Part shown: positions 9,100-35,133 of the stretch, in pieces
How the letters are laid out: each line of letters opens with the position of its first letter
How positions within the stretch are numbered: the stretch's first letter is position 1
Virus record (IMG/VR): IMGVR_UViG_3300028832_000111
Length of the DNA: 42,664 nucleotides
Source of the DNA: a virus
Lineage: Duplodnaviria; Heunggongvirae; Uroviricota; Caudoviricetes
Reading direction: 5' to 3' (one strand)
Notes under the pieces: model-generated
What the model was told of the DNA's origin: nothing
What the model saw: the letters and a program-made list of their open reading frames with translations, nothing else
Database searches by the model: none
Program-made: the position numbers and the translations under genes

Positions 9100-9111
9100 A
9101 ATCTAAAATGT

Positions 9112-10873: not shown

Positions 10874-10946
10874 TAAGTACCGTTATGCCTACCATCGGAG
10901 TGAATGGATTTTTCACGCTTTTATGGAACCCTCCTTTGAAGAGGGA

Positions 10947-11011
10947 TGTAGAGATCGTTAATGTTTCAGTTTATTCTCACTATTGTTTGTTTCCAGAATT
11001 TTGGTAATCCG
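10947..11011 (-). promoter_or_regulatory. copy 3 of the bipartite late-type motif, upstream of TR
   Basis: GATTACCAAAAT (10998-11009; 12-bp exact match to 35120-35131), 45-nt spacer, ATCTCTACA (10947-10955; 8/9 match to ATCTTTACA). Confidence 0.55.
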
Positions 11012-11028
11012 CGCCCTTAGAGGGCGCG
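11010..11028. promoter_or_regulatory. GC-rich hairpin/cruciform downstream of the DGR target gene
   Basis: CGCGCCCT-TAG-AGGGCGCG: 8-bp stem, 3-nt loop, 8 nt past the target stop codon. Such hairpins are established DGR homing elements. Confidence 0.8.
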
Positions 11029-11036
11029 TTTCCCAA

Positions 11037-12395
11037 TCACGATGCTAATTCTCTGAACCTCTGTGCGGTTACACGGTTGATAGGTCCATAATAAGCAAGA
11101 CGAGCCGAGATGTACGAGGCCGAGGCCGACCAGACGGCGTTCGAGTTCGCACACGCGAGACCGCAATCCGCACCGTAGTGCGAGGAGCCGCCGAACAGCC
11201 ACAGCTGTCCTGATGCATCGTAGGAGAAGTAGTCATTGTAGGTGACGCCTGAGAGAGTCTGCTTGGGTATCATATATGTGCCCTGTCCGTTGACAGATGA
11301 CACTATATTCATGCCTGTAGCGCTCGTTGAGGTGGCACGCTGCAACAACACATGCTCGACGTGTGCGAACGTTTCCGCCGTAGGAGTGCCGGTAGGCATG
11401 AAGTTATGACGCCAGCAATAGACATCGGTGGCACCGACAGAGCAGAGACCCTGAACCATCTCCCAATACTGACCCCAAGGGTTCTCGAAGCCAGCGACAT
11501 TCACTGAGTGGCAGTCACCGTTCTCGGAATCCTTGACAGTGACCTTACCGTCATTCCTTCCGAGTGACAGTGTGGCACCGGTCTTGATGTTCTTCTGACG
11601 GGTGAATCCGTCACTGGCTGAACTGGTTGTGTTCTCTGAGCCGTCAAGACCCACACCCCAAACGAGTGTGCCGTCACCGTTCTTACAACCCTGTGAGTCA
11701 CGCCATCCATACTTGCTCATCATGTGATAGAGCAGGTAGTTGCGGAAATCAAGATTGGCAAGACCATGATTGAGGGACCGGGCCTGAGCCTGATTCCAGA
11801 AGGTGTTGATGGTCTTGTTATTATCCGGCACCATACCCGGCAGAGAGCGCATCTTACCGCTCACCACGGATGCCTTGAACTTACCGACCACCAGACGAGG
11901 CAGGATATGAGCCAACGGAAGCTCGCTGAGGGATTCCCAGGTACGCTGTATGGTGGTAGCACCGACAGTGACATCCTGGATACGCTCGTATGACTGCGGA
12001 CGTATATGCATGAAGTCACCGTGAGCATACTCACTCTTGACAGTACCGTCCGCATTAAGGACATAATCGCCCTCAACGGTATAACGGCAGTCATCGGGAT
12101 TGAGAAGGCAGTAGTTACCCTTGTCATCCATGAGGACATCCAGACCGGCATCCTCCCAGAGCTGACGCATGTGCTCGTTACCACCCACATCAACACGTGC
12201 GCTACCCAGAGCGCTCGCTTTGTTGATATCCATGTAGAACGCAAGGTCGTGAAGGACCTGCTCATCGTTGTCGTTAAGGTGTTCGCTGAACTCCTTAACA
12301 GTCATTTGTCCCGCCTCATTACCGAAGATACCCATGATGGTATCGGTGTCACTGAGCTGATGTACGTAAGGGACATCTGAGATTTGTACATTCAT
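11037..12395 (-). CDS. DGR target: C-type-lectin-fold adhesin / tail fibre tip (Mtd-like), 452 aa
   Basis: GFENPWGQYWEM and C-terminal WLFGG...SARL motifs; VR at the 3' end. Confidence 0.92.
   Translation of the reverse strand: MNVQISDVPYVHQLSDTDTIMGIFGNEAGQMTVKEFSEHLNDNDEQVLHDLAFYMDINKASALGSARVDVGGNEHMRQLWEDAGLDVLMDDKGNYCLLNPDDCRYTVEGDYVLNADGTVKSEYAHGDFMHIRPQSYERIQDVTVGATTIQRTWESLSELPLAHILPRLVVGKFKASVVSGKMRSLPGMVPDNNKTINTFWNQAQARSLNHGLANLDFRNYLLYHMMSKYGWRDSQGCKNGDGTLVWGVGLDGSENTTSSASDGFTRQKNIKTGATLSLGRNDGKVTVKDSENGDCHSVNVAGFENPWGQYWEMVQGLCSVGATDVYCWRHNFMPTGTPTAETFAHVEHVLLQRATSTSATGMNIVSSVNGQGTYMIPKQTLSGVTYNDYFSYDASGQLWLFGGSSHYGADCGLACANSNAVWSASASYISARLAYYGPINRVTAQRFRELAS
11098..11206 (-). 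repeat. DGR variable repeat (VR)
   Basis: Reads LWLFGGSSHYGADCGLACANSNAVWSASASYISARL; all 13 differences from TR fall on TR adenines. Confidence 0.97.
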
Positions 12396-12426
12396 AATCT
12401 ATAATTGTTTAATTAAGGTGTTGTAA

Positions 12427-13521
12427 TCAGAAAGTCGCTGTGACGTCCACATCGACGTCACCATAGTAAGCACCCTGTCCCTGACCGCATACCGCATAAG
12501 CAGGAACCAGCGTTACGACAGCACCGGTGCCGGTGTGTGTAATGACACCCTCTGCGTTGATGACATCCCATGAATATGTCACCGCACCCGTATAGACTAC
12601 GTTGTTGCGCAGGAGTGAGAGGTTATAGACAGCGTTATGTGTCGGTGAGAGGTATGCAGCGTTACCGGTGATAGTCTCGTCGAGCGTCTGCATGATCTGG
12701 TACTCGTCGGCGGTGTCATGTATGGTGACGCTATCCACTGCCACCACATTACCGTTCTTGTACAGCTTGGCAATGAAGACGTTACTGCCGGTGACATCAG
12801 ACCTCGACACGGTGATGGAAGCAGTGGTCAGACCGGTATCGGTAGTACCCTTGAACCACTTGATGGTATAACCATTCTGTCCTATAGTGACCGGATTGCC
12901 ACCATAGTAACAGTGAGCGGTGAGGGTAGCCTGTGTGGTGGTCTTATCCAACTCCACGGTGTTGGCTGTGACCTGCATAGCATGGTTGCTCGCGCCACTG
13001 GACATGATGATGACATCGACGCTACCTTCAACGGTGTCGGTCATCTGGTTGCTGGCATAGCTCACCTCATAGCTGATCTGTGTGTTGGCGATGTGATTCG
13101 GGTCAGCGAGGTTGCCGATGATACGCAGCTGCCAGTAGGTGACAGGATTGGCACCGGAAGTGGTGTATATCCTTGCCTGGAACTTAGCGTTGTTGGTAGC
13201 TGTAGTCCATGAAGAGCCGATGCTGGAGAACTGCAGCGCCGTGCCGTCGTATTTCCATGTGACACCGGTTATCTCAGCGGGATAACCCGATGCGGAACGG
13301 ACACGTAACTGTATGATAGGCTGAGCCGCTATGATAGCAGCCTGCTCATCTCCTGACGTGCCGGTGGCATCCCAGTTCGGTGTGATAGCATGGGATACGG
13401 AATCAACACTCTGGAAGAGTGGCACGCCGTCACCCGCGTCATTGATGACATCACGCAGGACAATAATCTGGTCTCCGTTTCTGAGGAAGCGGACGGAGAA
13501 AGCCGCACCTGTCGTACTCAT
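12427..13521 (-). CDS. tail/baseplate-associated protein with Ig-like beta domains, 364 aa
   Basis: Thr/Val-rich beta-strand patterns (TLTA.C.Y, IKWFKG, YSWDV); located within the tail module. Confidence 0.7.
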   Translation of the reverse strand: MSTTGAAFSVRFLRNGDQIIVLRDVINDAGDGVPLFQSVDSVSHAITPNWDATGTSGDEQAAIIAAQPIIQLRVRSASGYPAEITGVTWKYDGTALQFSSIGSSWTTATNNAKFQARIYTTSGANPVTYWQLRIIGNLADPNHIANTQISYEVSYASNQMTDTVEGSVDVIIMSSGASNHAMQVTANTVELDKTTTQATLTAHCYYGGNPVTIGQNGYTIKWFKGTTDTGLTTASITVSRSDVTGSNVFIAKLYKNGNVVAVDSVTIHDTADEYQIMQTLDETITGNAAYLSPTHNAVYNLSLLRNNVVYTGAVTYSWDVINAEGVITHTGTGAVVTLVPAYAVCGQGQGAYYGDVDVDVTATF

Positions 13522-13526
13522 TTCGT

Positions 13527-13736
13527 TTATTTCTTGTTGGTTAATTCGTTAAACACCTCTGCTTCGGTCATCACCCTGCCACCGAGCAACGTTGCCGCGA
13601 CATGAATGTCAGAGTCCACGACCTTCAGTTCCTTCTCGTTTACCACCATCTGTCTGCAGTCCTGCGTCAAGCGGTGGAAGGCGGGGACAAATCCGTAATC
13701 CTCGCCTTTCTTCGTGTCAATGATTGAATAGAGCAT
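13527..13736 (-). CDS. small hypothetical tail-module protein, 69 aa
   Basis: ORF track; fills the gap exactly. Confidence 0.7.
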   Translation of the reverse strand: MLYSIIDTKKGEDYGFVPAFHRLTQDCRQMVVNEKELKVVDSDIHVAATLLGGRVMTEAEVFNELTNKK

Positions 13737-13740
13737 ATTA

Positions 13741-15078
13741 TCAGCCGATTAGAATGTTACCATGTGTGTCGGTGAGGATGTCATTACCTATCGCCAGAGG
13801 CTCATAAGCGCCGTTGTCGTTGTAGTCCCATACAGGTTCGCCGTTGGCATCTCTCTGCACCTCATGTGTCGATGGGTCGATGACCGGACGCAGACGTCCG
13901 TGAGGAATGATGTCAAGCCAATACTCGAAGAAGCTGTCGTTCTTCGTGACTCCGATGCCGAGCTTGGATATCTCAGCATTCAGGTAGGGACCCCTCTGCC
14001 ATGTCTTGACAGCACCATAGCTCCATGTGCCGCTGCTCAGCACCTTAGCCTGTGTGAACCACTGGATGAGGTAATAGAGGTCGGCATATTCGACCGAGCG
14101 GTCGTTGAGCAACACTACTGCGGTGTTGCTGTACATCACCTGTGAGGGGTTGATGTCAGCAGCACGCAGACCCTGCGCCCAACGCGGCATGGTGCATTGC
14201 GTGGTGAGACCGATAGTGGCACGTGCGATTATCTCCGAGTTCTGGAGGAACTGCACCTCATACTCACCCTTGGAGATGAGCCTCATGTCGAAGGTGATGA
14301 GAGGGAACGTAGCCGCCAGCAGCTCCGGTGATGTGTTGGATGCCGGTGAGAGCGGAGTTGATGTGCCGAGCTTCACCACACGCATGGTGACGCCGGTCGG
14401 TAACGTCTGCAGGCTGGTGTCGCCTTTCATCAGCAGTACCGTAACCGTCTGCTCGAACGCCTGGCTGTTGATATGTGACGCACGTGTGCCGGTGACGGTG
14501 ATGCCACGAGCCACCTTGTAGTCGTATAGCAGCAGGTCATCGAAGAGCGGGTCATAGGTGATGATAGGCTTATCGACAGAACAGGTGATGCTGTCCTCGC
14601 CTTTGTCGGTGGTGGTGAGAGCAAGGTCATTACTCTCCACACCGTAGATCATACCTGTACGCCAGTCCTCAAACTGACCCTTGAAACGCAGCACCACCTT
14701 CTCATTGGCGGGTATGTTCACATAGATGGTCAATGCGCCGCGCACATCCGTAGCGGTGGTGTTGATGACGTAATCCACGCCTGCAGTCCACACTTCGGCG
14801 ATAGGCTCTTCATTGACTAACCACTCCAGCGTACCCAGGTACTCGTTCGCCGGTCCGTGATGGAAGATGTTATCCGGATCAACGGCGCGGACATCAGGGA
14901 AGATGACCGTTGGCGTCAGCGCTCTGTTAGGGTTATAGACAGGAGATGCACCCGTAGAATCCACCGACTGAGCGGCAGGTGACGCGGGTGTCTGACAGAC
15001 CAGTTCACAGCTCACTGTCAGCGGCTGGAACTTAACCCTTGTATGGGTTCTTGGTGATGTAAATCTGTTCTCGTTCAT
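13741..15078 (-). CDS. tail/baseplate-associated protein, 445 aa
   Basis: The ORF track starts at 15138, overlapping the hub gene; ATG at 15078 (MNENRF) removes the overlap. Confidence 0.75.
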   Translation of the reverse strand: MNENRFTSPRTHTRVKFQPLTVSCELVCQTPASPAAQSVDSTGASPVYNPNRALTPTVIFPDVRAVDPDNIFHHGPANEYLGTLEWLVNEEPIAEVWTAGVDYVINTTATDVRGALTIYVNIPANEKVVLRFKGQFEDWRTGMIYGVESNDLALTTTDKGEDSITCSVDKPIITYDPLFDDLLLYDYKVARGITVTGTRASHINSQAFEQTVTVLLMKGDTSLQTLPTGVTMRVVKLGTSTPLSPASNTSPELLAATFPLITFDMRLISKGEYEVQFLQNSEIIARATIGLTTQCTMPRWAQGLRAADINPSQVMYSNTAVVLLNDRSVEYADLYYLIQWFTQAKVLSSGTWSYGAVKTWQRGPYLNAEISKLGIGVTKNDSFFEYWLDIIPHGRLRPVIDPSTHEVQRDANGEPVWDYNDNGAYEPLAIGNDILTDTHGNILIG

Positions 15079-15085
15079 ATCGTTG

Positions 15086-18000
15086 TTATGCGTAATAATT
15101 TGCTTCTGCAGATGCAGCTGATACACCTGAGACCTCATCGGTTGCCGTCACCGTAAACACCGCGAGGAGCTTACGGATACCGTCGATACCGAGGTCATTG
15201 AATGAAATCTGGAAGGGATTGGTGACAGACGTATGCTGTGCGTTCCATACGGCGTCAGAGGCGGCATCGCCCGTGTTCCTGACCACAGAGTAGTGTGTGA
15301 ACTGTGAGGTCTTATCGGCGTTATAGCCGTCTTTCACCGTGACGGTGACGGTCTCTGTCTCACCGGGGGCGAGCGAGCCGTTGAGTGACTGGTCAATCTC
15401 ACAGTGATAACCCAGACGCTCGAACTGGTCTATCTCTCCGAAGATGTAGGCGTTACCCATGACAACACCGACACCGGAGAAAGTCTTCAGGTAAGGCTGA
15501 CCCTGTTCATCGATAGCAGGCATGGAGAAGCCGTCAAGATGACCACGTATGTAGTAATAGTTGGAAGGCTGGAACTCCCATGTGTTGACACCGGTCAGTG
15601 CCACCGAGTAACGGGTAGTGCTGTAGATGAACGCCTGACGGTCGGTGTTACTTACGTTACCGCGTCCTGCGAAATGCATACCCTCGAAGGGATGTATGCC
15701 GTTACCACCCTCGTTCTGTCCGCGCAGCACGTATGTGAAGGTCTCGTTCCTGTCACCGCTGACGCTGGTGATGAGGAAATAGACGGTCTTGAATCCCGCG
15801 AAGAGGAAGTTACCCCTGTTGTCATCAGAGGTGGTCTGTGCGTTACCCGACTGATCATGCCAGATACCCATACACAAGTCACCGACAGCGATTGCACCGA
15901 CCTCACCATCTTCGAGATGCAAGGTGCAGGTGCCGGTCTCTGAACCGTCATTGGGTTCCACGGTGTCGATGATACCACCGCCGAAGGTGTCCCACCGGAT
16001 TCCGGTATAGATGCTGACACGGTTATACCGCAGTTCCGGAACCTCCAGCCATTCCCATAGCTTAAGACCACGCATCTCACCGTAGCCGTTTTCGTCGATA
16101 GCTGCACCCGCACCCATGAGACCGGGCTGGTAGTTTTCACCAATACGTATGCCTCTGTTGAACCCTATACGTCCCTTGGCCGTGTCATCGAACCGCTTGG
16201 ACAGGAAGTCCTGACGTGCGGGGCTGTCCGGGTCAAGGTCATGTGCCGTATCTGCACGTTCGGCGTGCTTGACATTGGCTTTCTCCAGACGGTTGAACAT
16301 CGTCTCGTTGGCGATACGGTCAACGGTACGTGTTATCTTCTTCAGCGTGGATTGCTGTATGTCATCATTGAGTTTGAGCTCGACCTTCGGAGTCAAGCCC
16401 TCACCCATGCTTATCTGAACGCTCTCAATGGTGATATCAACCTCGGGTAGTGTCTGCTGTCCTTCAATCGGTATGCCGAAGAAGGAGAACTTCATACCTG
16501 CATAGAGACGCCAGAAGATGCTGTCCTCCTCCTGTCCTGCCGCTACCATACGGTCATAGTTACGCTGCAGGAAGATGTCATCAAGGACAGGCTGATAGAT
16601 GAAACGTGTCACGCTGTTCAGTGACAGCCATTCGGTAGCGGCATCGAGCAGTCTCACCTCGGCGGCTTCGATATAAGCGTCCGGCAGGTTGATACCTGTC
16701 AGCACGAAACGGTCGCCCGCCTGTATGGTGTCGTTGGAACTCGGATAGTATGTACCCAGACCGTCATCCTTGGCTCGTGCCAGACGCAGCATGTAACCTT
16801 TCTTACCATCGTATGTCACCTCCTCGACGCCACTCAGGATCTCAAACTCACGTCCCATACATGAACCGCTCTTCATGGACAGCTTGGGTGTGTCGGTGCC
16901 GAACTGAGCCTCTATGTTGAAGCCCATATCCTTGACGAAGAGATGGAAGTCCTCGCTGGCGGTGGCATCGCTGACACCCTTCCAGATGTAGATAGGTTCG
17001 TATTTGTCATTTTCGGGATTATAGTTGACCCGAGCTGTGAAGTTGATATGTGTCGAACCTGTCTCACTCAGCTGCAAGACAGGTATGAAATTCACCGTGA
17101 TATCCGAATAGGCAGTGACCTGTATGAGAGAGGACGGTACGGTCTGTCCGTCAAGAGGGACGGGGAATGCCGTCATCTCCATCATGCCGGTACAGTTCTC
17201 ATAGATGGATGCAAAGGCTTCAGTGGTATAACTGAATATCGTTGTCTCTACACCTGTGTTCTTGTTGGTCTGTACCACCTCGATACGGTACTTGACCTTC
17301 ACCATACCCTGCCATGACTCGGTACGTTGCACCCTGAAGATGAAATACGGGACCTGGTTGGCTTGCGGGGTGAAGAAGTAATTACCGGGTGACACATCCT
17401 GTACGGAGAACAGCTTACGAGAAGGTCCTCTCCATTCCTTGGTGGTGTTACCGCTCCAGTGGAAATCGTTATAACCGGTGCCGGTGGTGAAGGTGAGTAC
17501 CCGAGCGGCGACAACAGCCTTCTTTGCATTGGCGTTATCCTCACTCTCGGTCAGGACACCATCACCGACGTTAGCGTCATCCGTAAGCGTGCCGTCAACA
17601 TAATGACCTATCGCCAGTAGCTCGTCAATACGCTCGTTACCGTTATAGTTGGGATAAGCGGACTGTCCGGTCTGCTCATCCTGGTCAGGCACACCGGCAT
17701 CACGCAGCTCGCTTATCTTGACACCCTCGATGGTGGGGTATATCTCAGGTACGTCACCCGAGCCGTCAAATACCACGCTGCCTTCACGCACACCCTCATC
17801 CGAGGCAGCGGCGTTATTGCCTTTCTCTATGTAGGAGTCGTTGGCGGGACCCAGCACGGCATTGAGGGCGCTGCTTCTCGCGTTGTTACGAGCCCATTTG
17901 GTATAACCCTGTGCGTCGGGTGTGTCGGTAGGATCACCTTCGGGAAGGAATGTACCGGGGAGCTGCAGGTTGGCAGGGAACAGAGCCTGTGACACCAGAC

Positions 18001-18874
18001 CGTAACGCTTGTAGTAGTAGTGGAACGGTATGTTCTTGGTGGAACCCATCGCACGCATACGTGTCACTATCTGCTGGCTGCTGTCGGAGGTCTTGACAAT
18101 CTCAAAGAGCGAATGTCCCTGATGGTCTATATCGGAATAACCCTTGCCATAACCCATACGGTACACCTCTGCATCGTCATCATTGACAAGGTTCTTCAGC
18201 GCGAATCCGATATACACATGTCTGCCCTGTATCGAATAGTTGAGGTCAAACACGTCATGTACCATAGCCAGTGCTTCAGCTACGGTGTTGTTGTTGAATG
18301 ACAGCAGCTGATCGTCGGTATGTGTAGTAAGCAAGTCCTGGTGCGGTGCAGGCTGATAGGTGTCGGTATCCACCTCGAACGTCCATACGCCCACGCCATA
18401 CATAGCATCCATACACACCTGCATCTTGGCGGCGAGCACGGATACGGCCGGACGTACCTTGGTCACACCGCCTATAGAGACCTGTGTCTCACCGCAGTAA
18501 AGCTGGAAGACGGTACTTCCGGTGTGGTTGGAGCCAAGGATAGCGTCATAGGTCGATGACGTGATGTCACGCATCGTACAGCGTGCCGTCTCATCGTCAC
18601 CGGGTGAGTTGAACTTGATATCCTCATAGACGAATGCTTCAAGGCTCGTCCCGATACTGGCTTTCTGACGTACAGAAGGGATGTAATTGAGGGTGTAGGT
18701 CTTACCGCGAAAGACGCAGTAATCACCGACGGCGAATGATATGGGTTTCTCGGAGCGTACCGTACACATCACGTACTGCTCCTGCATCATACCGTCAAAG
18801 AAACGCCATTTCTCAACTACGGCACGGGTAGCCCCGTTCTTGGTTTTTATGACCAACGCATACTGGCTACTCAT
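15086..18874 (-). CDS. baseplate hub / Tal-like tail protein, 1262 aa
   Basis: Follows the distal tail gene; TRMRAMGSTKNIP...LQLPG segment and C-terminal LKLWEWLEVPELRYNR...GGG are typical of Bacteroidales phage hub proteins (from memory). Confidence 0.75.
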   Translation of the reverse strand: MSSQYALVIKTKNGATRAVVEKWRFFDGMMQEQYVMCTVRSEKPISFAVGDYCVFRGKTYTLNYIPSVRQKASIGTSLEAFVYEDIKFNSPGDDETARCTMRDITSSTYDAILGSNHTGSTVFQLYCGETQVSIGGVTKVRPAVSVLAAKMQVCMDAMYGVGVWTFEVDTDTYQPAPHQDLLTTHTDDQLLSFNNNTVAEALAMVHDVFDLNYSIQGRHVYIGFALKNLVNDDDAEVYRMGYGKGYSDIDHQGHSLFEIVKTSDSSQQIVTRMRAMGSTKNIPFHYYYKRYGLVSQALFPANLQLPGTFLPEGDPTDTPDAQGYTKWARNNARSSALNAVLGPANDSYIEKGNNAAASDEGVREGSVVFDGSGDVPEIYPTIEGVKISELRDAGVPDQDEQTGQSAYPNYNGNERIDELLAIGHYVDGTLTDDANVGDGVLTESEDNANAKKAVVAARVLTFTTGTGYNDFHWSGNTTKEWRGPSRKLFSVQDVSPGNYFFTPQANQVPYFIFRVQRTESWQGMVKVKYRIEVVQTNKNTGVETTIFSYTTEAFASIYENCTGMMEMTAFPVPLDGQTVPSSLIQVTAYSDITVNFIPVLQLSETGSTHINFTARVNYNPENDKYEPIYIWKGVSDATASEDFHLFVKDMGFNIEAQFGTDTPKLSMKSGSCMGREFEILSGVEEVTYDGKKGYMLRLARAKDDGLGTYYPSSNDTIQAGDRFVLTGINLPDAYIEAAEVRLLDAATEWLSLNSVTRFIYQPVLDDIFLQRNYDRMVAAGQEEDSIFWRLYAGMKFSFFGIPIEGQQTLPEVDITIESVQISMGEGLTPKVELKLNDDIQQSTLKKITRTVDRIANETMFNRLEKANVKHAERADTAHDLDPDSPARQDFLSKRFDDTAKGRIGFNRGIRIGENYQPGLMGAGAAIDENGYGEMRGLKLWEWLEVPELRYNRVSIYTGIRWDTFGGGIIDTVEPNDGSETGTCTLHLEDGEVGAIAVGDLCMGIWHDQSGNAQTTSDDNRGNFLFAGFKTVYFLITSVSGDRNETFTYVLRGQNEGGNGIHPFEGMHFAGRGNVSNTDRQAFIYSTTRYSVALTGVNTWEFQPSNYYYIRGHLDGFSMPAIDEQGQPYLKTFSGVGVVMGNAYIFGEIDQFERLGYHCEIDQSLNGSLAPGETETVTVTVKDGYNADKTSQFTHYSVVRNTGDAASDAVWNAQHTSVTNPFQISFNDLGIDGIRKLLAVFTVTATDEVSGVSAASAEANYYA

Positions 18875-18878
18875 CGTC

Positions 18879-19457
18879 TCACCATGTTAAGTAGTTCAAC
18901 ACATCGACACCGCCCACTGTCACGTAGCTCGGTGTCACATCGGTGACGGGATCCATCACGGTGAACTTCACCTCGAAGTCAGCCACCACGTCATCATCGT
19001 AGTCAGTATGGAAGAATATCTTGTTTCCGACCTTGGATATGACCACATCCTTACGTCCGATACCGGTATCCTCGCTGTAAATCGCGAGCCTGGGATTCAT
19101 CACGGTATCACCTGTCACGCCACTGCCGACACGACCATAGAGGAACTTGATGAAGTTCTTGATTTCAGTACGCACGGTATCATCGGTGACGCTGCTTCCG
19201 TTACGGGTTCTTTTGTAAAGGAATTTCACATCAAGGTCATACTCCTTGATAGGGAGTACCGAGGGGATATAGGCATCCAGACCATGCTGGTCAGCCCAGT
19301 CGCGTGTAGGCAAATCCTTGCGCTCCGGGAAAAGCACAAAGGGACATTCCTCACACACAACATTGAATTTCTCCAACGTGTCAATCGGCTTACCTTTGGT
19401 ATAGGTTGAGCCGTCAAATTCTATCTGCTGAATGTATAACTTGTACGGATTTGCCAT
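18879..19457 (-). CDS. distal tail (Dit)-like protein, 192 aa
   Basis: First co-directional gene after the tape measure; RKDLPTRDWADQHGLDAY segment. Confidence 0.65.
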   Translation of the reverse strand: MANPYKLYIQQIEFDGSTYTKGKPIDTLEKFNVVCEECPFVLFPERKDLPTRDWADQHGLDAYIPSVLPIKEYDLDVKFLYKRTRNGSSVTDDTVRTEIKNFIKFLYGRVGSGVTGDTVMNPRLAIYSEDTGIGRKDVVISKVGNKIFFHTDYDDDVVADFEVKFTVMDPVTDVTPSYVTVGGVDVLNYLTW

Positions 19458-19528
19458 TTGTAAAGATTTTTCATCGCTAATATAGTAAGCAAACCCTCTT
19501 ACGCTTGGGCGTTGTTATTGGTAATCTT
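19456..19528 (-). promoter_or_regulatory. copy 2 of the bipartite late-type motif, upstream of the distal-tail operon
   Basis: AAGATTACCAA (19518-19528), ACTATATT, then GAAAAATCTTTACAAAT (19456-19472; 17-bp exact match to 35065-35081). Confidence 0.75.
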
Positions 19529-19559
19529 GCAGATAAGACAGGTAAATCATGCGAGTGCG

Positions 19560-19592
19560 TTGTAAGCTATGTCATCATGCCATTATTTTTGC
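19560..19592 (+). promoter_or_regulatory. Bacteroidetes sigma-A promoter
   Basis: TTG (19560-19562), 21-nt spacer, TATTTTTGC (19584-19592), 21 nt upstream of ATG 19614. Confidence 0.6.
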
Positions 19593-19613
19593 GGTGGTAA
19601 ACGTTACGACACT

Positions 19614-20114
19614 ATGAATAAACTGAACAAAGAACTTAAGGAACAAGCCATCGGACTTGGCTTGTGCGGACAATGGGCTGAGGAGTGGAATAAGAGCTGG
19701 AACGCGGATGAACTTGCCAAACGGATGTTCTCAGGTATCACGTTCTGTATGCGTAATAACTATCCGGGAAAAGACTTTCTCCTGCAGCATTTTGATTCTA
19801 AGACGTTAATCAAAAACAACGTCATCATTGACTGCCGACACAGCCTCCTCAATCCGAAGAACTCACTGCTTATGGGAGATGCGGAATCCACCATCCGTTT
19901 CAACGGTCTTTCTTTTGGAAGGGTGTATCTACGTGATGGTAGCAAAGCGACACTAACTGCAAAAGGACGGTCTTTCGTTATAGTACATCTTTATGACAAC
20001 GCATCAATAAACGTTGCGCAGTCAGATATCGCCAAGGTGAGCATTGTCGTTCACAGCAGCACCACCCAAGTTGAAATCAGCGGAAGGGTCAAAGTCGTAA
20101 ACCGCATGAAATGA
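19614..20114 (+). CDS. hypothetical protein with C-terminal beta-solenoid-like repeats, 166 aa
   Basis: ATG at 19614 (MNKLNKELK) lies downstream of the promoter; LCGQW motif; V.L.D.S..-type repeats. Confidence 0.75.
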   Translation: MNKLNKELKEQAIGLGLCGQWAEEWNKSWNADELAKRMFSGITFCMRNNYPGKDFLLQHFDSKTLIKNNVIIDCRHSLLNPKNSLLMGDAESTIRFNGLSFGRVYLRDGSKATLTAKGRSFVIVHLYDNASINVAQSDIAKVSIVVHSSTTQVEISGRVKVVNRMK

Positions 20115-20137
20115 CATGCGGAATAGGAGAAAATCAT

Positions 20138-20146
20138 TATATTTGC
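20138..20146 (+). promoter_or_regulatory. Bacteroidetes -7 promoter element
   Basis: TATATTTGC preceded by AAAA, 25 nt upstream of the lipoprotein ATG. Confidence 0.65.
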
Positions 20147-20171
20147 TCCCGTAACAGACAACCAATAGCTT

Positions 20172-20642
20172 ATGAGGAAGATAGTATTACTCCTTGCGGC
20201 GGTCTTGCCGCTTATCGTCATATCCTGTTCAAAAGAGGAGGAAGAGAAGAAACCCCATTGTGAAGTTGTTATATACAACGATATGGATCTCAGCCGGACG
20301 CAGGTAAGCAACGGCAATCTCTATAACGTCACCCTTGGCACCACCAAAGGAGAGATACTGGAGGTGGGGAATATCAACAACGGCAAAAGCGTGAGTTACA
20401 CCATGCCGGAAGGATATACATCGGATGACAGCTTTATCTTCTTCCTCAAGTTGTCACCCAACGGCAATGATTTGTCAACGCAGGGTTATATTCTCCTATA
20501 CTCCGGAAACAATCCTGTCCTTTTTCCTCTGAAGGAAGACAAGCCGGTTGAGATTCATATCACGGAGAATACGGTCGCAAGAAAAAGCAACTACACCAAG
20601 AAAGGAGATTTGATAACGATACTGCAATCTGCAGGGTTATAA
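20172..20642 (+). CDS. lipoprotein (moron-like; possible superinfection exclusion), 156 aa
   Basis: Signal peptide II MRKIVLLLAAVLPLIVIS-C followed by SKEEEE (Bacteroidetes lipoprotein-export-signal-like); has its own promoter and terminator. Confidence 0.8.
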   Translation: MRKIVLLLAAVLPLIVISCSKEEEEKKPHCEVVIYNDMDLSRTQVSNGNLYNVTLGTTKGEILEVGNINNGKSVSYTMPEGYTSDDSFIFFLKLSPNGNDLSTQGYILLYSGNNPVLFPLKEDKPVEIHITENTVARKSNYTKKGDLITILQSAGL

Positions 20643-20644
20643 GA

Positions 20645-20670
20645 AAAGGCGGGATGACCCGCCTTTCTTT
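20645..20670. terminator. bidirectional intrinsic terminator
   Basis: AAAGGCGGG-ATGA-CCCGCCTTT-CTTT between the convergent lipoprotein and tape-measure genes. Confidence 0.85.
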
Positions 20671-27937: not shown

Positions 27938-27949
27938 AGTCGAAGTGTT

Positions 27950-28399: not shown

Positions 28400-28791
28400 T
28401 TTTTTTTACCTGTTTCCAACAGGGGTTGCAGCTGAATGTCATCATACTGCTTGATGTAGTAGAACCAACGCCACAGAAACCAGTATCTGAACTTCAGCTT
28501 CCAGTAACCGTCGAGGATGATGATTGCAGCCGCCTTACAAGCGAGCTTGCGGTCCTCCATGATGACAGACATGATGTCATCGTCAGACGGTCTCTCCTTC
28601 TTTCCGTCTTTACGGAGAAGCAGACTGGTCAGTTTATCCAGCTGTCCGTTTTTCAGCCAGCGTATCTGATAGGTCTTGTTGGTGCGCAGTATCTTCACCT
28701 CGTCCGCTTCGTTGTTCTTCATCGACATGTAAAGCAGCTGAGCGTTGATGTTCGGCTGCTCCACTTTCGGTTCTTCTTTCGTCTTTGCCAT
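28246..28791 (-). CDS. tail assembly chaperone (gpG-like), 181 aa
   Basis: Lies between tail tube and tape measure; contains a slippery G-K-K-K site. Confidence 0.75.
   Translation of the reverse strand: MAKTKEEPKVEQPNINAQLLYMSMKNNEADEVKILRTNKTYQIRWLKNGQLDKLTSLLLRKDGKKERPSDDDIMSVIMEDRKLACKAAAIIILDGYWKLKFRYWFLWRWFYYIKQYDDIQLQPLLETGKKKVPLMQFYMTITSLTEAKDSLMRMRKEEAEATLLAQSTAQPSQTENKDSGS
28399..28408 (-). other. programmed -1 frameshift slippery site (T AAA AAA AAA G)
   Basis: Nine consecutive A on the minus strand give an A AAA AAA heptamer in the correct codon phase. Confidence 0.75.
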
Positions 28792-28806
28792 AAAAAGTGT
28801 CTCTTC

Positions 28807-29706: not shown

Positions 29707-29724
29707 ATCGTCTCGTTTGAAATT

Positions 29725-29765
29725 TTAAAGGGCAGCGGTGGTTGTACGCCGCCACTACCCTTTAA
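29725..29765 (-). terminator. long hairpin after the tail tube gene (terminator/attenuator)
   Basis: 17-bp stem TTAAAGGGTAGTGGCGG/CCACCGCTGCCCTTTAA on the minus strand (two G-U pairs, one mismatch); weak U tract. Confidence 0.55.
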
Positions 29766-29785
29766 GGAATCGGTCCCGACAGCAC

Positions 29786-30403
29786 TTAGGCTGCAACCAC
29801 CTTGGTCAGCACACCGAATGAGGTGGGATCGGCAGCTGCGCTGAGATTGCCGGTCAGCACCACGCACAGAGGCTTGTTGCTGCCGTCGAAGATGGCCTGA
29901 GCCATGAACTTCGCCTTCTTGATGAAGAGCAGCTTGTCCTCGGCGTCGTTCAAGATGAGCATACCGAAGTAAACAGCCTTCTGAGGAGCTGCAAAGGCTG
30001 CGCCCTTGAAGCTGACAGCGCTGTTACCCAGGATACCGCTCTTGAGCTCGATGGTGGCTTCAACAGGAGCGCTGCCGAAGCAAGCCTCCATGATGTTGGT
30101 CTCATTGCAGGGGATCTCCAGTGTGATGGAGCCATCACCAGGAGTGAATGTGCTCACCCAAGCTGCTCCAAGACCCTTGATCTTGAAGTTGTCAACAGTA
30201 GGAGCACCGGTGTCGAAGTTGAAACCTGACTCGTCAGAGACGGGGAACTCGAACAGGTTGCTGTCGTTGCTGTTGATGCTTGCGGAAGCCTTACCTGCAC
30301 CTGAACCAGAAGTGGGGATGGTGAAATCGAAACCACCCTTCACGGCGAATACTGAGGATATGCCCTCAAATACCTCGTCTTGCAGTTGAATCTTCTTTTT
30401 CAT
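29786..30403 (-). CDS. major tail (tube) protein, 205 aa
   Basis: Position after the tail terminator and before the chaperone; size; beta-rich; followed by a hairpin as expected for a highly expressed gene. Confidence 0.75.
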   Translation of the reverse strand: MKKKIQLQDEVFEGISSVFAVKGGFDFTIPTSGSGAGKASASINSNDSNLFEFPVSDESGFNFDTGAPTVDNFKIKGLGAAWVSTFTPGDGSITLEIPCNETNIMEACFGSAPVEATIELKSGILGNSAVSFKGAAFAAPQKAVYFGMLILNDAEDKLLFIKKAKFMAQAIFDGSNKPLCVVLTGNLSAAADPTSFGVLTKVVAA

Positions 30404-30425
30404 TGTCGTATAGTTTTTGGATTGA

Positions 30426-30842
30426 TTACTCTATAGTTCTCGCATTGAACTTGGTTCTCAGCTTGAACGTTATCTGTGTGACCTGATAACCCGTGTCATC
30501 ATTGCCGCGCATGAGTATCCTCGGCTTCTTGGCTACGATATGCTTCCCGTTGATGGGAAACAGGTCGAGAACCTTCTGAATGAGGTTACTCTGTGCCCCT
30601 ATGTTGAGAGTGCCGTTGCTCTTGGCATTCACATAGACAGAGATGAGAGGGTAACAGTCCGACCGCACATCGGCGTTTCCGGCAATCATACCCAGCAGCT
30701 CCGTCGGAATCTCAAAGACCAGGAACTCCGAGAGATTGGAGTCGGTGGTCTTGGGACGTCCTAAGTACACCTTCGACGTGACGGTCAGAAGGGCTGCACT
30801 CATATCCTCATAGATGCGGTATATCAGCGGTTTGCTTGCCAT
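30426..30842 (-). CDS. tail terminator-like protein, 138 aa
   Basis: Synteny; ISVYV..K motif and C-terminal I.F.L strand pattern. Confidence 0.6.
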   Translation of the reverse strand: MASKPLIYRIYEDMSAALLTVTSKVYLGRPKTTDSNLSEFLVFEIPTELLGMIAGNADVRSDCYPLISVYVNAKSNGTLNIGAQSNLIQKVLDLFPINGKHIVAKKPRILMRGNDDTGYQVTQITFKLRTKFNARTIE

Positions 30843-30854
30843 AGTCGTAATGTG

Positions 30855-31400
30855 TTAAGCGGCTCGTGGTAATCCGAGGAAGGTAGTACCCACGCGCTCG
30901 GCGTAGGCATAGGTCTGCAGGATACCGGTGGTGCTGCGTTGCTTCTCCACCCATGAAGCATACTCAACAGGGTATGCCACAACGATGTCGAACAGGTTCT
31001 TGCCCTCCGGTCTGTACGACTGGAAGAACTTGACCGCATCATCCGGTCCCCAACCCTCATCGGTCTTCACTGAAGGTGTGTAATGACTCTCAGCACCCTC
31101 ATAGTCAACCTTGAAGTGATATTTCTTGGGAGCGGTCATCTTGACCTGGATGGGATAAGAGAGACTGTCACCCGCGTAACAAGCATATACCGGTCTGCCG
31201 TTGCGATACAGACAGACCACGATAGATGTCAGCAAGTTACCGGTGAAGTCATGCTTACCCGGTGCGGACTTACGGAACTCGATAGCCCTGAGACAGAGGT
31301 CATCGCAGAAAGACTTACAGCGCTTCTCAACCTCGTTGAAAATCGCCTTCTTGTAATCCTTACAAGCCTTGTCTATGATACTGTCGTTAGTTCCTGCCAT
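30855..31400 (-). CDS. neck / HK97-gp10-like tail completion protein, 181 aa
   Basis: DFTGNLLTSI and YASWVE motifs; synteny. Confidence 0.65.
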   Translation of the reverse strand: MAGTNDSIIDKACKDYKKAIFNEVEKRCKSFCDDLCLRAIEFRKSAPGKHDFTGNLLTSIVVCLYRNGRPVYACYAGDSLSYPIQVKMTAPKKYHFKVDYEGAESHYTPSVKTDEGWGPDDAVKFFQSYRPEGKNLFDIVVAYPVEYASWVEKQRSTTGILQTYAYAERVGTTFLGLPRAA

Positions 31401-31857
31401 ATTTCCAAATCAGATGTGTCCCTCCGAAATTCGCTGGGTTGGCATCCAGCACAAAACCATATTCGGTATAACCGCCACGGTCAACAACGATGATGTCACC
31501 TGCTCTCGGCACCACACCCAGCTTCTGCCAGTCGTCCCGTGTGAGAGGCAAGGCGAGAGCACGGTATGACGTGATAACCTCTCCCTTGTCTGACGTCGTA
31601 TGCTTGTCGTAGGCGCGGCATTTGCCCTCATAGATGACCGAATCTCCCTCCTTGACCTCTTCGCCCTCCTGCGTGGGTTCTTCCTGCGCGGGATCCTGCG
31701 TCGCGTCACCGCCAGTGCCGGACGTCGGTTCGCTGTCTGCCATAGGGTCTTCGTCAAGCATGGGATTGCTGACTACCGACTCGTCTGACATGGGACCTTC
31801 GTCAGTGTTGCGCGTGATGCGGCAGGTATGGGGAAATCGCGGATTGTTGACTCTCAT
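31387..31857 (-). CDS. head closure (stopper)-like protein with an acidic insertion, 156 aa
   Basis: PRFPHTCRI...VIYEGKCRA...GDIIVV pattern; synteny. Confidence 0.6.
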   Translation of the reverse strand: MRVNNPRFPHTCRITRNTDEGPMSDESVVSNPMLDEDPMADSEPTSGTGGDATQDPAQEEPTQEGEEVKEGDSVIYEGKCRAYDKHTTSDKGEVITSYRALALPLTRDDWQKLGVVPRAGDIIVVDRGGYTEYGFVLDANPANFGGTHLIWKYGRN

Positions 31858-31861
31858 AGCT

Positions 31862-32275
31862 TTACCGTATAGGTCTGCGTATCTTGTGGAAACCGTTACC
31901 TTTCATGCCCCACTTGGGAGCAAGAGACTCGACACGCTGATCAGTGATACCCCACTTCTTCAAAAGGTCACGTGCCAGCAACAGGAACTGCTGCATCTGC
32001 GAACGTGACCACTGCTCGCTACCTTCCGAATGTTCCCAGTCACCATCCTTGTCAGACACTCTCTGTGACTGAATGGGATTGCTTGCGAAACGAATGAAAA
32101 GATAGGCTTGAGCCAGGTCCTTCTGTTTCTCAGTAAGGGTCTCGAAGGCGGTGTCAGCCTTAATGCCCGCATCAGCGAGAACACCGGACATGGTGCTCTC
32201 ACTGACGTTGGCATTGGGTGACAGGCTCTGGATATACTCCTCAGCTGTGTAGATATGTACCTCGGGTTCGGACAT
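31862..32275 (-). CDS. head-tail adaptor, 137 aa
   Basis: Small helical protein directly after the major capsid gene. Confidence 0.65.
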   Translation of the reverse strand: MSEPEVHIYTAEEYIQSLSPNANVSESTMSGVLADAGIKADTAFETLTEKQKDLAQAYLFIRFASNPIQSQRVSDKDGDWEHSEGSEQWSRSQMQQFLLLARDLLKKWGITDQRVESLAPKWGMKGNGFHKIRRPIR

Positions 32276-32297
32276 GTCAAATCACATTGTCAAAGTA

Positions 32298-33461
32298 TTA
32301 CCCGGCGTAGTCGTACCATACGGTAGCGATGCCGTAGTCATTCACGTTGTTGAACACAGGACCGGCGAAGAGCTCGCAGTCCACGATGTTCTTGATAGGA
32401 CGCTCCTGCCATGTATTGAGCACGGCGATACGTCCCTCAACGAATGAATAGCGGTCCGAAGCGCTCAGACCACCCAGCTTCACGCGGTCAACATAGACGC
32501 TGTTCATGCACTTCATCTCAAAGAGACGGTAAGCGCGTGAGGCAGCTACCATGTTGTGCTCATCGAAGGCGGGAGCATCGGCAACGGGCTTGCCGTCCTC
32601 CTCGTGACGTGACTTGAAGTCGATGACCTGGAACGGCCATATCTTCATGTCATTGTGCATCCATGCCAGCACATCGGTGCGAACCACCTTCACGTTGGTC
32701 GGTGAGAAGTAGTTCTTGCTGGCGATGTAAGCCTTCACGACACTCGGATGGAGCACGATCTTGTCGAGCAGGTTCTTCGACAGCTTCCAGTGGTCAACAC
32801 CAAGGTTGCGGACGTTGGTGTAGTAATCCTGGAAGGTCAAGATGTCCTCGATGACATCGGCGTTCTCGTTGGCGACGAGCTTGGGAGTGCCACTGGTGGT
32901 ATCCCATACATACCACTCCTTGCCAGAGTCGGGAGCTACGAAGTTCTCCTCGGGGATCTGGAACTTGAAGTCGTACTTGTAGCCGTCAACGGCGACATCG
33001 TGAATCTCACCTGTTGACATGGCCTGGAGGGTCATGTAGGAGAGTTCGTTGTGTACACCTCCGAGCATGTTGCTGGAGTTCTGTATGAAGCTGTCGGTAA
33101 TGGCCTCACCGAAGGTGATGTCATTGACCTTGCTGTAACGACGGAGCTCAATCAGGTCATCCTGGTCGATGCTGAATCCGTGACCTACCTTGGGCAGTGT
33201 GCCTCCGTAGAGTTCCCAACCCTGGGTTGAGCGCTGCGGCTTCTCGGAATGAGTACCGAGCACGCTGGCACGTACCAGGATAGGAGTCTTCTTCAGACCC
33301 TGCTTCCACTCTCTCTCGTTTGACGGCTGTCCCCACGAAGCAAACTGACGCCAAATCGCATTGTTGTACTTTGCGTTGACGTTATCGAGGATCAGACCGA
33401 AGCTCTCAGCGTCCACATACTGATGCAGACCGTTGATTCCATAAAGATTTTGGTCTCTCAT
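32298..33461 (-). CDS. major capsid protein, 387 aa
   Basis: Size, position after scaffold/decoration genes, strong codon bias (many C-ending codons), lambda-gpE-like layout (ALSTG-type motif AMSTGEI, ...F.IP..N). Confidence 0.8.
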   Translation of the reverse strand: MRDQNLYGINGLHQYVDAESFGLILDNVNAKYNNAIWRQFASWGQPSNEREWKQGLKKTPILVRASVLGTHSEKPQRSTQGWELYGGTLPKVGHGFSIDQDDLIELRRYSKVNDITFGEAITDSFIQNSSNMLGGVHNELSYMTLQAMSTGEIHDVAVDGYKYDFKFQIPEENFVAPDSGKEWYVWDTTSGTPKLVANENADVIEDILTFQDYYTNVRNLGVDHWKLSKNLLDKIVLHPSVVKAYIASKNYFSPTNVKVVRTDVLAWMHNDMKIWPFQVIDFKSRHEEDGKPVADAPAFDEHNMVAASRAYRLFEMKCMNSVYVDRVKLGGLSASDRYSFVEGRIAVLNTWQERPIKNIVDCELFAGPVFNNVNDYGIATVWYDYAG

Positions 33462-33478
33462 AATCTAATCTCCTTTGT

Positions 33479-34141
33479 TTACTTGCGGTTTGAGAAATTG
33501 AAGTAGCAACCGTTCTCGATGAGGGCCTTCTTCAGACTGGCGGTCAGAGGAGGCATACGACGCTCAAGGACGGGGCGCACGCTGAAATAGATGGGATCTA
33601 CGTCAATGGCGTAGGCATCGTTGTCAAGCACGTTGTCGCAATAGGTGAGACCGTTAGGTATGACCTTAACTTTCTTCACCACTGCAGACATGGCTTCTGC
33701 GAGGATGTCACCGACCTGGACATTGGCTGAGCTGCCACCGGTGAGACCGGTAACGGTCAGGATGTCATAGTCTGATGCTGACTTGTCGATATCGGTGATG
33801 GTCAGGACGGCTGCAGCGGCGGCGGTCAGGTCATCACCCACGACGATGAGGTTCATGCCGACCTTGGCGATACTACCGGTCTCGAACTTCTCCACCTTGA
33901 TGGTGTTCTCTTCGGTGTCAACATCCAGGACACGGAAGGTGTAGAGAGGAACGAGGGTGCGGAGCTGCTCGTCATAGAGCACGGGGGTTCCAGCAGCCAT
34001 TGCAGCGCCGTCAAGCGGCATCAATGACTTGTCGCAGGAGAAACCGCCTACTACGATCTCGGGCTTGCCCTCGTAGCACTTGCGGACACCACCGAAGCTC
34101 TTGCTGAACTTCACATAGTTGTTGATAGTTCCTGTTCTCAT
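33479..34141 (-). CDS. capsid decoration / cement protein, 220 aa
   Basis: Between scaffold and capsid; AAGTPV motif typical of head decoration proteins. Confidence 0.6.
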   Translation of the reverse strand: MRTGTINNYVKFSKSFGGVRKCYEGKPEIVVGGFSCDKSLMPLDGAAMAAGTPVLYDEQLRTLVPLYTFRVLDVDTEENTIKVEKFETGSIAKVGMNLIVVGDDLTAAAAAVLTITDIDKSASDYDILTVTGLTGGSSANVQVGDILAEAMSAVVKKVKVIPNGLTYCDNVLDNDAYAIDVDPIYFSVRPVLERRMPPLTASLKKALIENGCYFNFSNRK

Positions 34142-34187
34142 TTTTCTGTGAGTTTTTGTTTAACAAACCTTTTGTTTGCCCCCTGGA

Positions 34188-35051
34188 TTAGCAGAAGGTC
34201 TTCTCCTGTTCGGTGGCGTAGTCCGCGCTTTCCTTGGCCTCCTTCTTCAGCTGCTCGATCTTCTCCTTGACGAAGGTGTTCGTCTCTCCGCCGCCACCGC
34301 CGGTGCTTGAACCGCCGAAGGGTTGTCCTCCGTTGGGGTAGCGACGCTTGTACTCCTTCTCGTAGAAAGCCTTGATGCTGGGCTTGAGAGCGTCAGTCTT
34401 CGGGTCTTCTCCGTAATCGAGGTAAGTAGCGGCATCTTCGATGAGAGCTTGAATCTCGGCCGGGATATCTCCACCCTTGCGGGCTTCCTTCTCCAGACCG
34501 GTGAGGTAGCTGATGAGCTCGGTCTTCACGCGGTTCTTGTTGTCGGTTTTTTCCCGTGCAGCCTGTGAAGCCGTAAATGCGTTTATTGATTTCAGTGCCT
34601 TTGAAAGTTCGCTCTCGTCACCGGTCAGTCCCTTCATAGCCTCGGCTACGGCGTTACTTACCATTGTTTTGAGATCGTCCTTTCCACCTTCGCCGCCGTT
34701 ACCGCCGTCGCCACCTTCTCCACCGGGCTTATCCGGGTGAGCTTTCTTGTACTCCTCGACAGCCTTGCCAGCTGCGTCCTTGATACGCTTGGCAACATCT
34801 TGCTCATGCTGTGTGGCGTACTCGGTTTGATACTTCTTGGCGAACTCGGCTTCATCGTGACGCTTCTGCCCTGCATACTGAGTCAGCATGGCGATAGGGA
34901 GCTTCCACGTCTCTTCGGTGATTTTCGAGTCATCCGCGAAGAGAGGTAATACTGTATCGGCGATACCGTCGAAAGTTTTGTCACTGATGACCTTGGCGTT
35001 GTCTTCTCCAAGCCTGGTCCTAAATTCCTGAATTAGTGCTGTTTTTTCCAT
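34188..35051 (-). CDS. capsid scaffolding protein, 287 aa
   Basis: Charged helical protein with Gly-rich linkers; first gene of the head operon; no protease motif seen. Confidence 0.65.
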   Translation of the reverse strand: MEKTALIQEFRTRLGEDNAKVISDKTFDGIADTVLPLFADDSKITEETWKLPIAMLTQYAGQKRHDEAEFAKKYQTEYATQHEQDVAKRIKDAAGKAVEEYKKAHPDKPGGEGGDGGNGGEGGKDDLKTMVSNAVAEAMKGLTGDESELSKALKSINAFTASQAAREKTDNKNRVKTELISYLTGLEKEARKGGDIPAEIQALIEDAATYLDYGEDPKTDALKPSIKAFYEKEYKRRYPNGGQPFGGSSTGGGGGETNTFVKEKIEQLKKEAKESADYATEQEKTFC

Positions 35052-35101
35052 ACCAATTGCTATAATTTGTAAAGATTTTTCGCCAAATTATAGTGATTGG
35101 T
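35052..35101. repeat. 18-bp inverted repeat abutting the scaffold start codon
   Basis: ACCAATTGCTATAATTTG (35052-35069) / CAAATTATAGTGATTGGT (35084-35101): 16/18 Watson-Crick pairs. Confidence 0.75.
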
Positions 35102-35133
35102 GTTTTCCTAAGCGCTTTTATTTTGGTAATCTT
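35065..35133 (-). promoter_or_regulatory. copy 1 of the bipartite late-type motif, upstream of the head operon
   Basis: AAGATTACCAA (35123-35133), ACTATAATT, GAAAAATCTTTACAAAT (35065-35081). Confidence 0.75.

Follow-up and report, generated by a model that had tools for sequence, protein, structure and literature searches.

The window analyzed here, the whole stretch of 42,664 nucleotides (nt) from IMG/VR virus record IMGVR_UViG_3300028832_000111 (Caudoviricetes), carries on its minus strand three copies of a two-part sequence motif, the parts of which are called Box A and Box B. One copy precedes the scaffold/capsid operon (head copy), and another precedes the distal-tail operon (tail copy). 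The third (TR copy) lies in the spacer between the variable repeat (VR) and the template repeat (TR) of a diversity-generating retroelement (DGR). The gene map below was obtained from PHROG and Pfam scans of the window, and the two repeats were located by TR/VR comparison.

35161-37953, plus strand: terminase large subunit gene (terL), with an intein
37965-39722, plus strand: portal gene
35051 down to 20669, minus strand: head-to-tape-measure operon
32298-33461, minus strand: major head protein gene, within the preceding coordinates
19569-20642, plus strand: two genes
from 19457, minus strand: distal-tail operon
11037-12395, minus strand: DGR target gene, encoding a 452-amino-acid (aa) tail protein
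11093-11206, minus strand: VR, at the 3' end of the target gene
about 10757-10873, minus strand: TR
9112-10551, minus strand: DGR reverse transcriptase (RT) gene

The head and tail copies sit in divergent intergenic regions. The window probably represents the structural-gene part of a ~100-kb phage of Bacteroidales (Prevotella type). Judging from CheckV estimates for related viral contigs, the full genome is close to 100 kb long, and the window covers ~40% of it. Bacteroidales hosts are indicated by the titles of metagenome-assembled genomes (MAGs) and by one protein name: relatives of the RT occur in MAGs of Rikenellaceae, Proteiniphilum, Bacteroidaceae, and other Bacteroidales, and one homologue of the target protein is named from a Prevotella MAG. 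An Rfam scan of the whole window gave no match, and neither did a megablast search of the 11 kb from 9000 to 20000 against deposited phages. Searches of viral contigs for the locus with single proteins (the first tail protein and the RT) recovered none; an alignment-based search succeeded, and 77 related loci were retrieved with a terminase query. The loci and genomes of relatives are designated by L and G numbers, respectively.

The Box A sequence GATTACCAA matches the window three times, where 0.23 matches are expected; all three are on the minus strand (35131-35123, 19526-19518, and 11009-11001), and none of 100 shuffles reached three. The Box B pattern ATCT[C/T]TACA matches the window only at 35076-35068, 19467-19459, and 10955-10947, in each case 3' of a Box A and at spacings of 46 nt (head), 50 nt (tail), and 45 nt (TR). 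The head and tail copies have exact matches of 11 nt (AAGATTACCAA) and 17 nt (GAAAAATCTTTACAAAT) in common, and the head and TR copies have one of 12 nt (GATTACCAAAAT). This repeated pair is not a product of chance, and the coordinates, spacings, and exact matches given in a preliminary description of this DNA were all correct when recounted in the window. An exact scan of viral contigs for the bipartite motif returned 96 matches, 4 of which were in already-known relatives; the remaining ones looked like unrelated single chance matches, and no contig contained several copies.

Head upstream regions of the relatives were anchored on the last -7-like box before the ATG. For the tail set, five viral contigs with a homologue of the first tail gene were used, of which four contained a terminase locus as well, and one further promoter was found by pattern in genome G001. 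In total, 18 head and 6 tail promoters were aligned on the -7 box. Only three blocks are conserved among these 24 promoters: (i) xATT[A/T]CCAA (Box A) at -53 to -45; (ii) TAnnTTTG; and (iii) C(G/A)GAAAAtt.TTTACAA, which includes Box B, at -4 to +12. Sigma-ABfr promoters of Bacteroidota consist of a -33 TTTG and a -7 TAnnTTTG element (PMC6847099), so that the second block reads as the host -7 box. The numbering used here follows ribosome-profiling work in Flavobacterium, in which T is -12, G is -5, and transcription starts 5 nt after this G (PMC6847099). Box A and the -7 box are 31 to 33 bp apart throughout, with 32 bp and 33 bp in the head and tail promoters of the window, respectively. No -33 TTTG is conserved ~20 bp 5' of the -7 box in the alignment, and this element is weak in Bacteroidota generally (PMC6847099). 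The features predicted on this basis around the head, tail, and terminase-portal promoters of the window are as follows.

35123-35131, minus strand: head Box A, GATTACCAA, predicted at -53 to -45, 32 bp 5' of the -7 box (motif scan and alignment)
35083-35090, minus strand: head -7 box, TAATTTGG, with one mismatch; predicted start at ~35078 (alignment, with the numbering of PMC6847099)
35068-35076, minus strand: head Box B, ATCTTTACA, predicted at +3 to +11; the first head-operon gene has its ATG at 35051 (motif scan and alignment)
19518-19526, minus strand: tail Box A, GATTACCAA, 33 bp 5' of the -7 box (motif scan and alignment)
19477-19484, minus strand: tail -7 box, TATATTAG, with one mismatch; predicted start at ~19472 (alignment)
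19459-19467, minus strand: tail Box B, predicted at +6 to +14, abutting ATG 19457; leader of ~15 to 16 nt (motif scan and alignment)
35137-35145, plus strand: mirrored Box A (Box A'), TTTTACCAA, for the terminase-portal promoter, forming an inverted repeat with 35123-35131 (alignment)
35179-35186, plus strand: canonical -7 box, TATCTTTG, 33 bp 3' of Box A'; predicted start at 35191 (alignment)

Relatives have an exact TAnnTTTG where the head copy of the window reads ACTATAATTTGG. The window and its closest relatives at the head region (L005 to L007) have TAATTTGG, in which the nearly invariant T-6 is replaced by G. Measured against TAnnTTTG, the window boxes score 5/6 (head, TAATTTGG), 5/6 (tail, TATATTAG), and 6/6 (terL, TATCTTTG). 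The preliminary description stated that no copy carried TAnnTTTG, which is literally true of the exact box but misleading, as the head and tail copies carry 5/6 versions of it. Its view of phage-specific promoters that lack a host element is not supported for these two copies, as the ACTATA(A)TT middle box listed there corresponds to the predicted host sigma-A -7 box, which has one mismatch in the window. Box B, which had been taken for an upstream promoter box, has a predicted position at the start of the transcript (+3 to +11 in the head promoter and +6 to +14 in the tail promoter).

The head Box A is also the right arm of the inverted repeat TTGGTAA-N9-TTACCAA, and in relatives the arms change together (for example, to TTGGAAA/TTTCCAA). 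A canonical -7 box precedes terL on the plus strand in every relative, and in the clade with Box A a mirrored Box A is located 31 to 33 bp 5' of it. As read from the alignment, the inverted repeat is two opposed putative Box A sites, one for each of the divergent late promoters. We rejected the repeat as an RNA hairpin or terminator: it is 5' of both predicted starts and is not followed by a T-run on either strand. The -7 box at 35179-35186 lies within the called terL open reading frame (ORF), which begins with GTG 35161. The first in-frame ATG is at 35206, and a leader counted from there is ~15 nt long. ATG 35206 is the probable true start rather than GTG 35161, which agrees with the observation that relatives align only from residue 15 to 22 of the called ORF. 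Another canonical -7 box, TATTTTTG (19584-19591, plus strand), is located inside the ORF of the phrog_10156 gene as called from 19569, the true start of which is probably the ATG near 19614. With these two, two gene starts in the window would be corrected. No Box A accompanies the TATTTTTG promoter, whose counterparts in four relatives likewise are canonical. An exact -7 box is also present at the moron gene of the window (20138).

Box A occurs in two alleles, ATTACCA and ATTTCCA. In six of six genomes, the head and tail promoters carry the same allele, down to the flanking G or C: ATTACCA in the window, L012/L179, L016/L182, and L019/L174; CATTTCCA in L001/L180; and GATTTCCA in L017/L181. In each of the 16 genomes examined, the allele is the same in the two arms of the inverted repeat. 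On the TerL tree the alleles are intermingled; for example, the well-supported sisters L014 (T) and L015 (A), as well as L016 (A) and L017 (T), differ from each other; the allele has thus apparently switched several times, and sites up to 16 kb apart have switched together. More distant clades have other repeated words at the same position (TAGATTTTACG, ATTACCAC, TTAGCCA, and TTCGCCGT, each found twice). Because all sites within a genome switch together, a trans-acting, sequence-specific reader of Box A is suggested, and a protein that co-evolves with its sites would be expected to leave such a record of concerted switching. The two natural alleles provide a ready specificity-swap test and, through the comparison of sister phages, a handle on the regulator. 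A near copy of the Box A core, GATTTACC (19541-19548, minus strand), is located 22 bp (start to start) 5' of the tail Box A, and relative L181 has GATTTGC 10 bp 5' of its tail Box A; GATTTACC may be an auxiliary half-site.

The best explanation as a whole, and in our view a probable one, is an activator-type late regulon in which the head and tail copies are regulator-controlled promoters built around a host promoter element. The head, distal-tail, and terminase-portal operons would each be transcribed by the host RNA polymerase with the housekeeping sigma factor of Bacteroidota. Each promoter would have a -7 box, no usable -33 element, and a 9-bp Box A 31 to 33 bp upstream of the -7 box (approximately -53 to -45). 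A sequence-specific regulator, most probably a phage-encoded late activator, would bind Box A and recruit or stabilize the polymerase, in the manner of Ogr at the four late promoters of phage P2. What the sequences show is the architecture, the conservation of position, the concerted switching of alleles, and the lack of a -7 box at the TR copy; regulator binding at Box A, its positive sign, the late timing, and the transcription starts are what we infer. An activator is favored because Box A is located near -49, the -33 element is missing, and the -7 boxes of the window are weakened. The earlier proposal that the head and tail copies are paralogous promoters with a common regulator site is borne out by the fixed distance of Box A in the 24 promoters and by the concerted change of its alleles. 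In the literature searched, there was no account of late-promoter structure or late-gene timing in temperate Bacteroidales phages. The present comparison offers a testable promoter grammar for the widespread ~100-kb phages of gut and rumen, in which Box A at -49 is followed by the host -7 box and then by Box B where the transcript would begin.

The closest parallel is with the Ogr/B/Delta-dependent late promoters of P2. There, too, the same upstream site precedes the start of several late structural operons by ~50 bp, host sigma promoters have a poor upstream hexamer, and the sites differ between related phages. In the window and in at least 16 relatives, Box A occupies -53 to -45 in the promoters of head, tail, and terL. 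P2 has four late promoters (P_P, P_O, P_V, and P_F), including a divergent terminase-portal and scaffold-capsid pair, and in phage Smp131 one palindrome serves both promoters of the divergent pair (PMC3931495). The pair in the window is similarly served by one symmetric site, as in P2-like phages. However, P2 has the dyad TGT-N12-ACA, whereas Box A is a single asymmetric 9-mer, symmetry being seen only where promoters face each other and not at the tail promoters. The core is a Bacteroidota -7 box instead of a -10/-35 pair, there is an extra conserved box in the initially transcribed region, and no Ogr-like zinc finger gene is conserved among five related records. The predicted phage regulon would work like Ogr-type late promoters but is not a member of that family by sequence. 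As in sigma-ABfr promoters, the head, tail, and terL cores of the relatives have an exact TAnnTTTG followed by C-purine-A-rich starts. Unlike in plain sigma-ABfr promoters, the head and tail boxes of the window have the T-6 mismatch and no -33 TTTG, and a fixed Box A and a downstream Box B are added. The Mu C/Mor and RinA/ArpU activators are also phage encoded, needed for one or several late operons, and bound just upstream of the promoter core, and RinA-type systems usually control a single late promoter 5' of terS (PMC3152322). No homologue of Mu C/Mor or RinA/ArpU was detected in the window.

Several observations weigh against the late-activator reading. No regulator gene was identified in the window, which is ~40% of the genome. 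The preliminary description had suggested looking for a phage activator gene, and within the window one Ogr-like candidate was found, an 83-aa ORF (2074-2325, minus strand) whose zinc ribbon spacing (CX2C-X23-CX2C) nearly equals that of P2 Ogr. This ORF, which the near-identical L316 contains as well, was rejected as an Ogr analogue, having no homologue in the five related records, which include a complete ~106-kb relative. Box B is reversed in terL leaders (TGTAAA; AAAAATGTAAA), which the model leaves unexplained. The canonical -7 boxes of the relatives might fire without help, and Box A may have a negative or other role, and the concordance of alleles could come partly from block recombination rather than from protein co-evolution.

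The third copy differs from the other two. Every mismatch between TR and VR is at a TR adenine and the RT gene is adjacent, which identifies the element as a DGR. The features of its VR-TR spacer are listed below.

11011-11027, minus strand: GC-rich VR hairpin, GCGCCCT-CTA-AGGGCGC, the DGR target-site hairpin, identical in L437
11001-11009, minus strand: Box A copy, one base (G, 11010) 3' of the VR hairpin, 12/12 identical with the head copy over GATTACCAAAAT
10947-10955, minus strand: Box B-like ATCTCTACA (8/9), 45 nt after this Box A, one nt before the second hairpin and ~74 nt 5' of TR
10929-10945, minus strand: second spacer hairpin, CCCTC-TTCAAAG-GAGGG

The preliminary description regarded all three copies as functional late promoters or activator sites, with a late promoter of its own for TR and the RT gene that would couple diversification to virion production. 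The resemblance of the TR copy to the head copy speaks for this (12/12 at Box A, 8/9 at Box B, and a spacing of 45 against 46 nt), as do a chance of co-occurrence roughly estimated at ~1e-4 or less and the location of the copy on the coding strand in a 480-bp intergenic spacer. However, at the 31 to 33 bp required there is no -7 box (TGAAACAT at 10968-10961 matches 1/6, and the best nearby box matches 3/6), and the A-rich start that precedes Box B in the real promoters is missing. On the opposite strand, a promoter search at the TR copy found only 5/6 matches and no Box A geometry. With a Box A and a weak Box B and without a -7 box, the TR copy is most likely not an independent promoter.

Comparison with other DGRs points in the same direction. 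Nine of the same lineage were compared (RT or target 60% to 68% identical: L185, L186, L292, L201, L317, L437, L438, L446, and L447). A VR hairpin and an A-rich spacer, often with a second hairpin, are common to most of them, and in several relatives without Box B the second hairpin is present with a different sequence. None of the nine has a -7 box in the spacer, and eight lack both Box A and Box B. The ninth, L437 (target 66% identical), has the identical VR hairpin and after it GGATTTACCAAAAC, a Box A lengthened by one T, as a conserved island in an otherwise diverged spacer, and this hints at constraint. L437 is a phage of a different type with a differently organized backbone, in which the exact word is single copy, one-mismatch ATTTACCAA-like words are no commoner than a control pattern, and the four near-matches inspected are unlike promoters; no Box A regulon was seen in it. 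L316, being 98% to 99% identical to the window, is uninformative on conservation of the TR copy. Within ~1.5 kb of the RT gene, Box A is missing from two phages of the Box A type with DGRs of another RT lineage, G001 and G004. By chance alone, ~100 kb should contain about one orphan Box A 9-mer, and the complete relative G005 has one: GATTTCCAA, in the loop of a perfect 7-bp hairpin (GTGTAGG...CCTACAC; L017, 22340-22380, plus strand) and without a -7 box at 32 bp. Extra GATTACCAA sites in G001 and G002 were set aside as well, being inside coding sequence and chance-like in appearance. A scan with 14-mers from the TR flank gave mostly chance matches and two true DGRs. Among the matches listed by a metagenome scan for the Box A core plus the TR flank there was no true DGR, a result to which we attach no weight. 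We made no use of the ATTA(G/A)CGAT likeness of the tail and TR copies as a sign of paralogy; by eye, the TR spacer stretch aligns about as well to the spacers of DGR relatives.

A late promoter belonging to TR itself is thereby weakened and, we consider, unlikely. The preliminary description had made its proposal depend on conservation of the DGR copy in related phages; eight of the nine lack it, and the ninth has a Box A-like sequence in an unrelated backbone. The biological side of the proposal, late expression of the DGR, is still likely for a simpler reason. TR and the RT gene lie in the tail operon, and no convincing minus-strand terminator was found between 19472 and 9112, the VR hairpin having no T-run; the DGR is therefore probably expressed late by read-through from the tail promoter. 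For late expression it would need no promoter of its own.

Pure chance is an unlikely origin of the TR copy. A relic or orphan regulator site that travels with a mobile DGR-tail module is one possibility, and a regulator site with a role other than that of a promoter is another; each fits the data at least as well as an active promoter does. A functional site next to TR would be a rare example of regulated DGR activity. One form of the second possibility, which we regard as quite unlikely, is that the Box A beside the VR hairpin is a genuine late-regulator site that gates the DGR by binding and not by promoter activity. The bound regulator could produce the TR RNA or set its limits, or it could work on the neighboring target-site hairpin, and mutagenic retrohoming would then be confined to late lytic growth. 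A regulatory input into a phage DGR would thereby be described for the first time.

The DGR itself resembles that of Bordetella phage BPP-1 (mtd-avd-TR-brt) in its adenine-specific TR/VR differences, a GC-rich hairpin after VR, an RT gene 3' of TR, and a tail-fiber-like target. Unlike in BPP-1, there is no avd between VR and TR but a conserved 132-aa ORF after the RT gene, and the VR-TR spacer has look-alikes of Box A and Box B, which are not general in this DGR lineage. The 132-aa ORF (8701-9099, minus strand), directly 3' of the RT gene, is kept in all related DGR loci fetched, with 32% to 98% identity (mostly 50% to 61%). It has no Pfam or PDB sequence match and may encode an accessory protein of this DGR family that is not recognizably Avd. 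The order of the distal-tail module (genes for ~420-aa, 70-aa, and 355-aa proteins, target, TR, RT, 132-aa ORF, and giant fiber) is found in L185, L186, L317, L437, L438, L446, and L447. These include clearly different backbones, such as L437, where the module directly follows the portal and a 1,500-aa protein. Judging by such arrangements, the DGR-tail module is mosaic and apparently mobile among Bacteroidales phages.

As for the sign of Box A, a repressor or a host factor could bind it, with intrinsically active -7 promoters whose timing Box A would set negatively or which it would tie to host physiology. The -7 boxes of the relatives are perfect and Bacteroidota promoters often have no clear -33 element (PMC6847099), so that an activator is not strictly required. 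An inverted repeat between divergent promoters resembles a classical operator, and a shared host factor could explain the Box A-like sequence in L437, an unrelated phage from the same environment. However, the site is centered near -49, upstream of the polymerase core footprint, which is typical of activators and a poor position for a repressor. The head and tail -7 boxes of the window have a defect at the nearly invariant T-6, consistent with promoters that depend on help, and a difference in allele between sister phages is easier to explain with a phage-borne reader than with one from the host. A repressor or host factor at Box A therefore seems improbable to us, and the late activator remains the preferred reading.

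Box B is predicted to comprise the first ~12 transcribed bases, because the alignment places it downstream of the -7 box, in the block from -4 to +12. Its position tracks the promoter and not the ATG: in tail promoters Box B abuts the ATG, and in most head promoters of the relatives a hairpin and 40 to 60 nt intervene. The Box B-like TTTACA is present in 13 of 38 promoters with Box A, all of them head or tail promoters. Among sites without Box A, it is present in 1 of 10 promoters with an A-rich start and in 5 of 176 -7-like sites overall. Since its sequence (AAAAATCTTTACAAA) does not vary with the Box A allele, Box B probably has a different reader; it could be recognized by the polymerase itself or by a second factor, or it could act as the RNA 5' end. 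That Box A and Box B form the loading site of a Q-like antiterminator that reads through the 15- to 19-kb late operons is very improbable: a DNA site paired with a conserved element at approximately +3 to +14 that is positioned by the start and not by the ATG, very long operons with many internal hairpins, and a Box B that does not co-vary with Box A (as expected if the polymerase or sigma recognizes it) would suit such a mechanism, but Box B is not closely similar to a -7 box (AAtcTTTA, 4/6), known Q binding elements are within the promoter and not at -49, an own copy for each operon is more typical of activators, and no Q-like gene was seen in the PHROG and Pfam scans of the window.

The leaders of the relatives have some further features. 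In most head leaders (for example, in L010, L012, and L015), a GC hairpin with a loop of the GAGAAA type comes after Box B, and CAACCAACACAAAAACTAAAC then precedes the ATG; this hairpin segment has been lost from the window and from L005 to L007. Most terL leaders (for example, L004, 9980-10010, and L012, 10003-10030) read CGACAAAAATGTAAA(A/G), which includes a two-codon ATG-TAA start-stop just 5' of the real start, and some carry TGTAAAGAT, the exact reverse complement of Box B. The intein in the terL product of the window is marked by Hom_end and Hint matches at 35400-36450 (plus strand).

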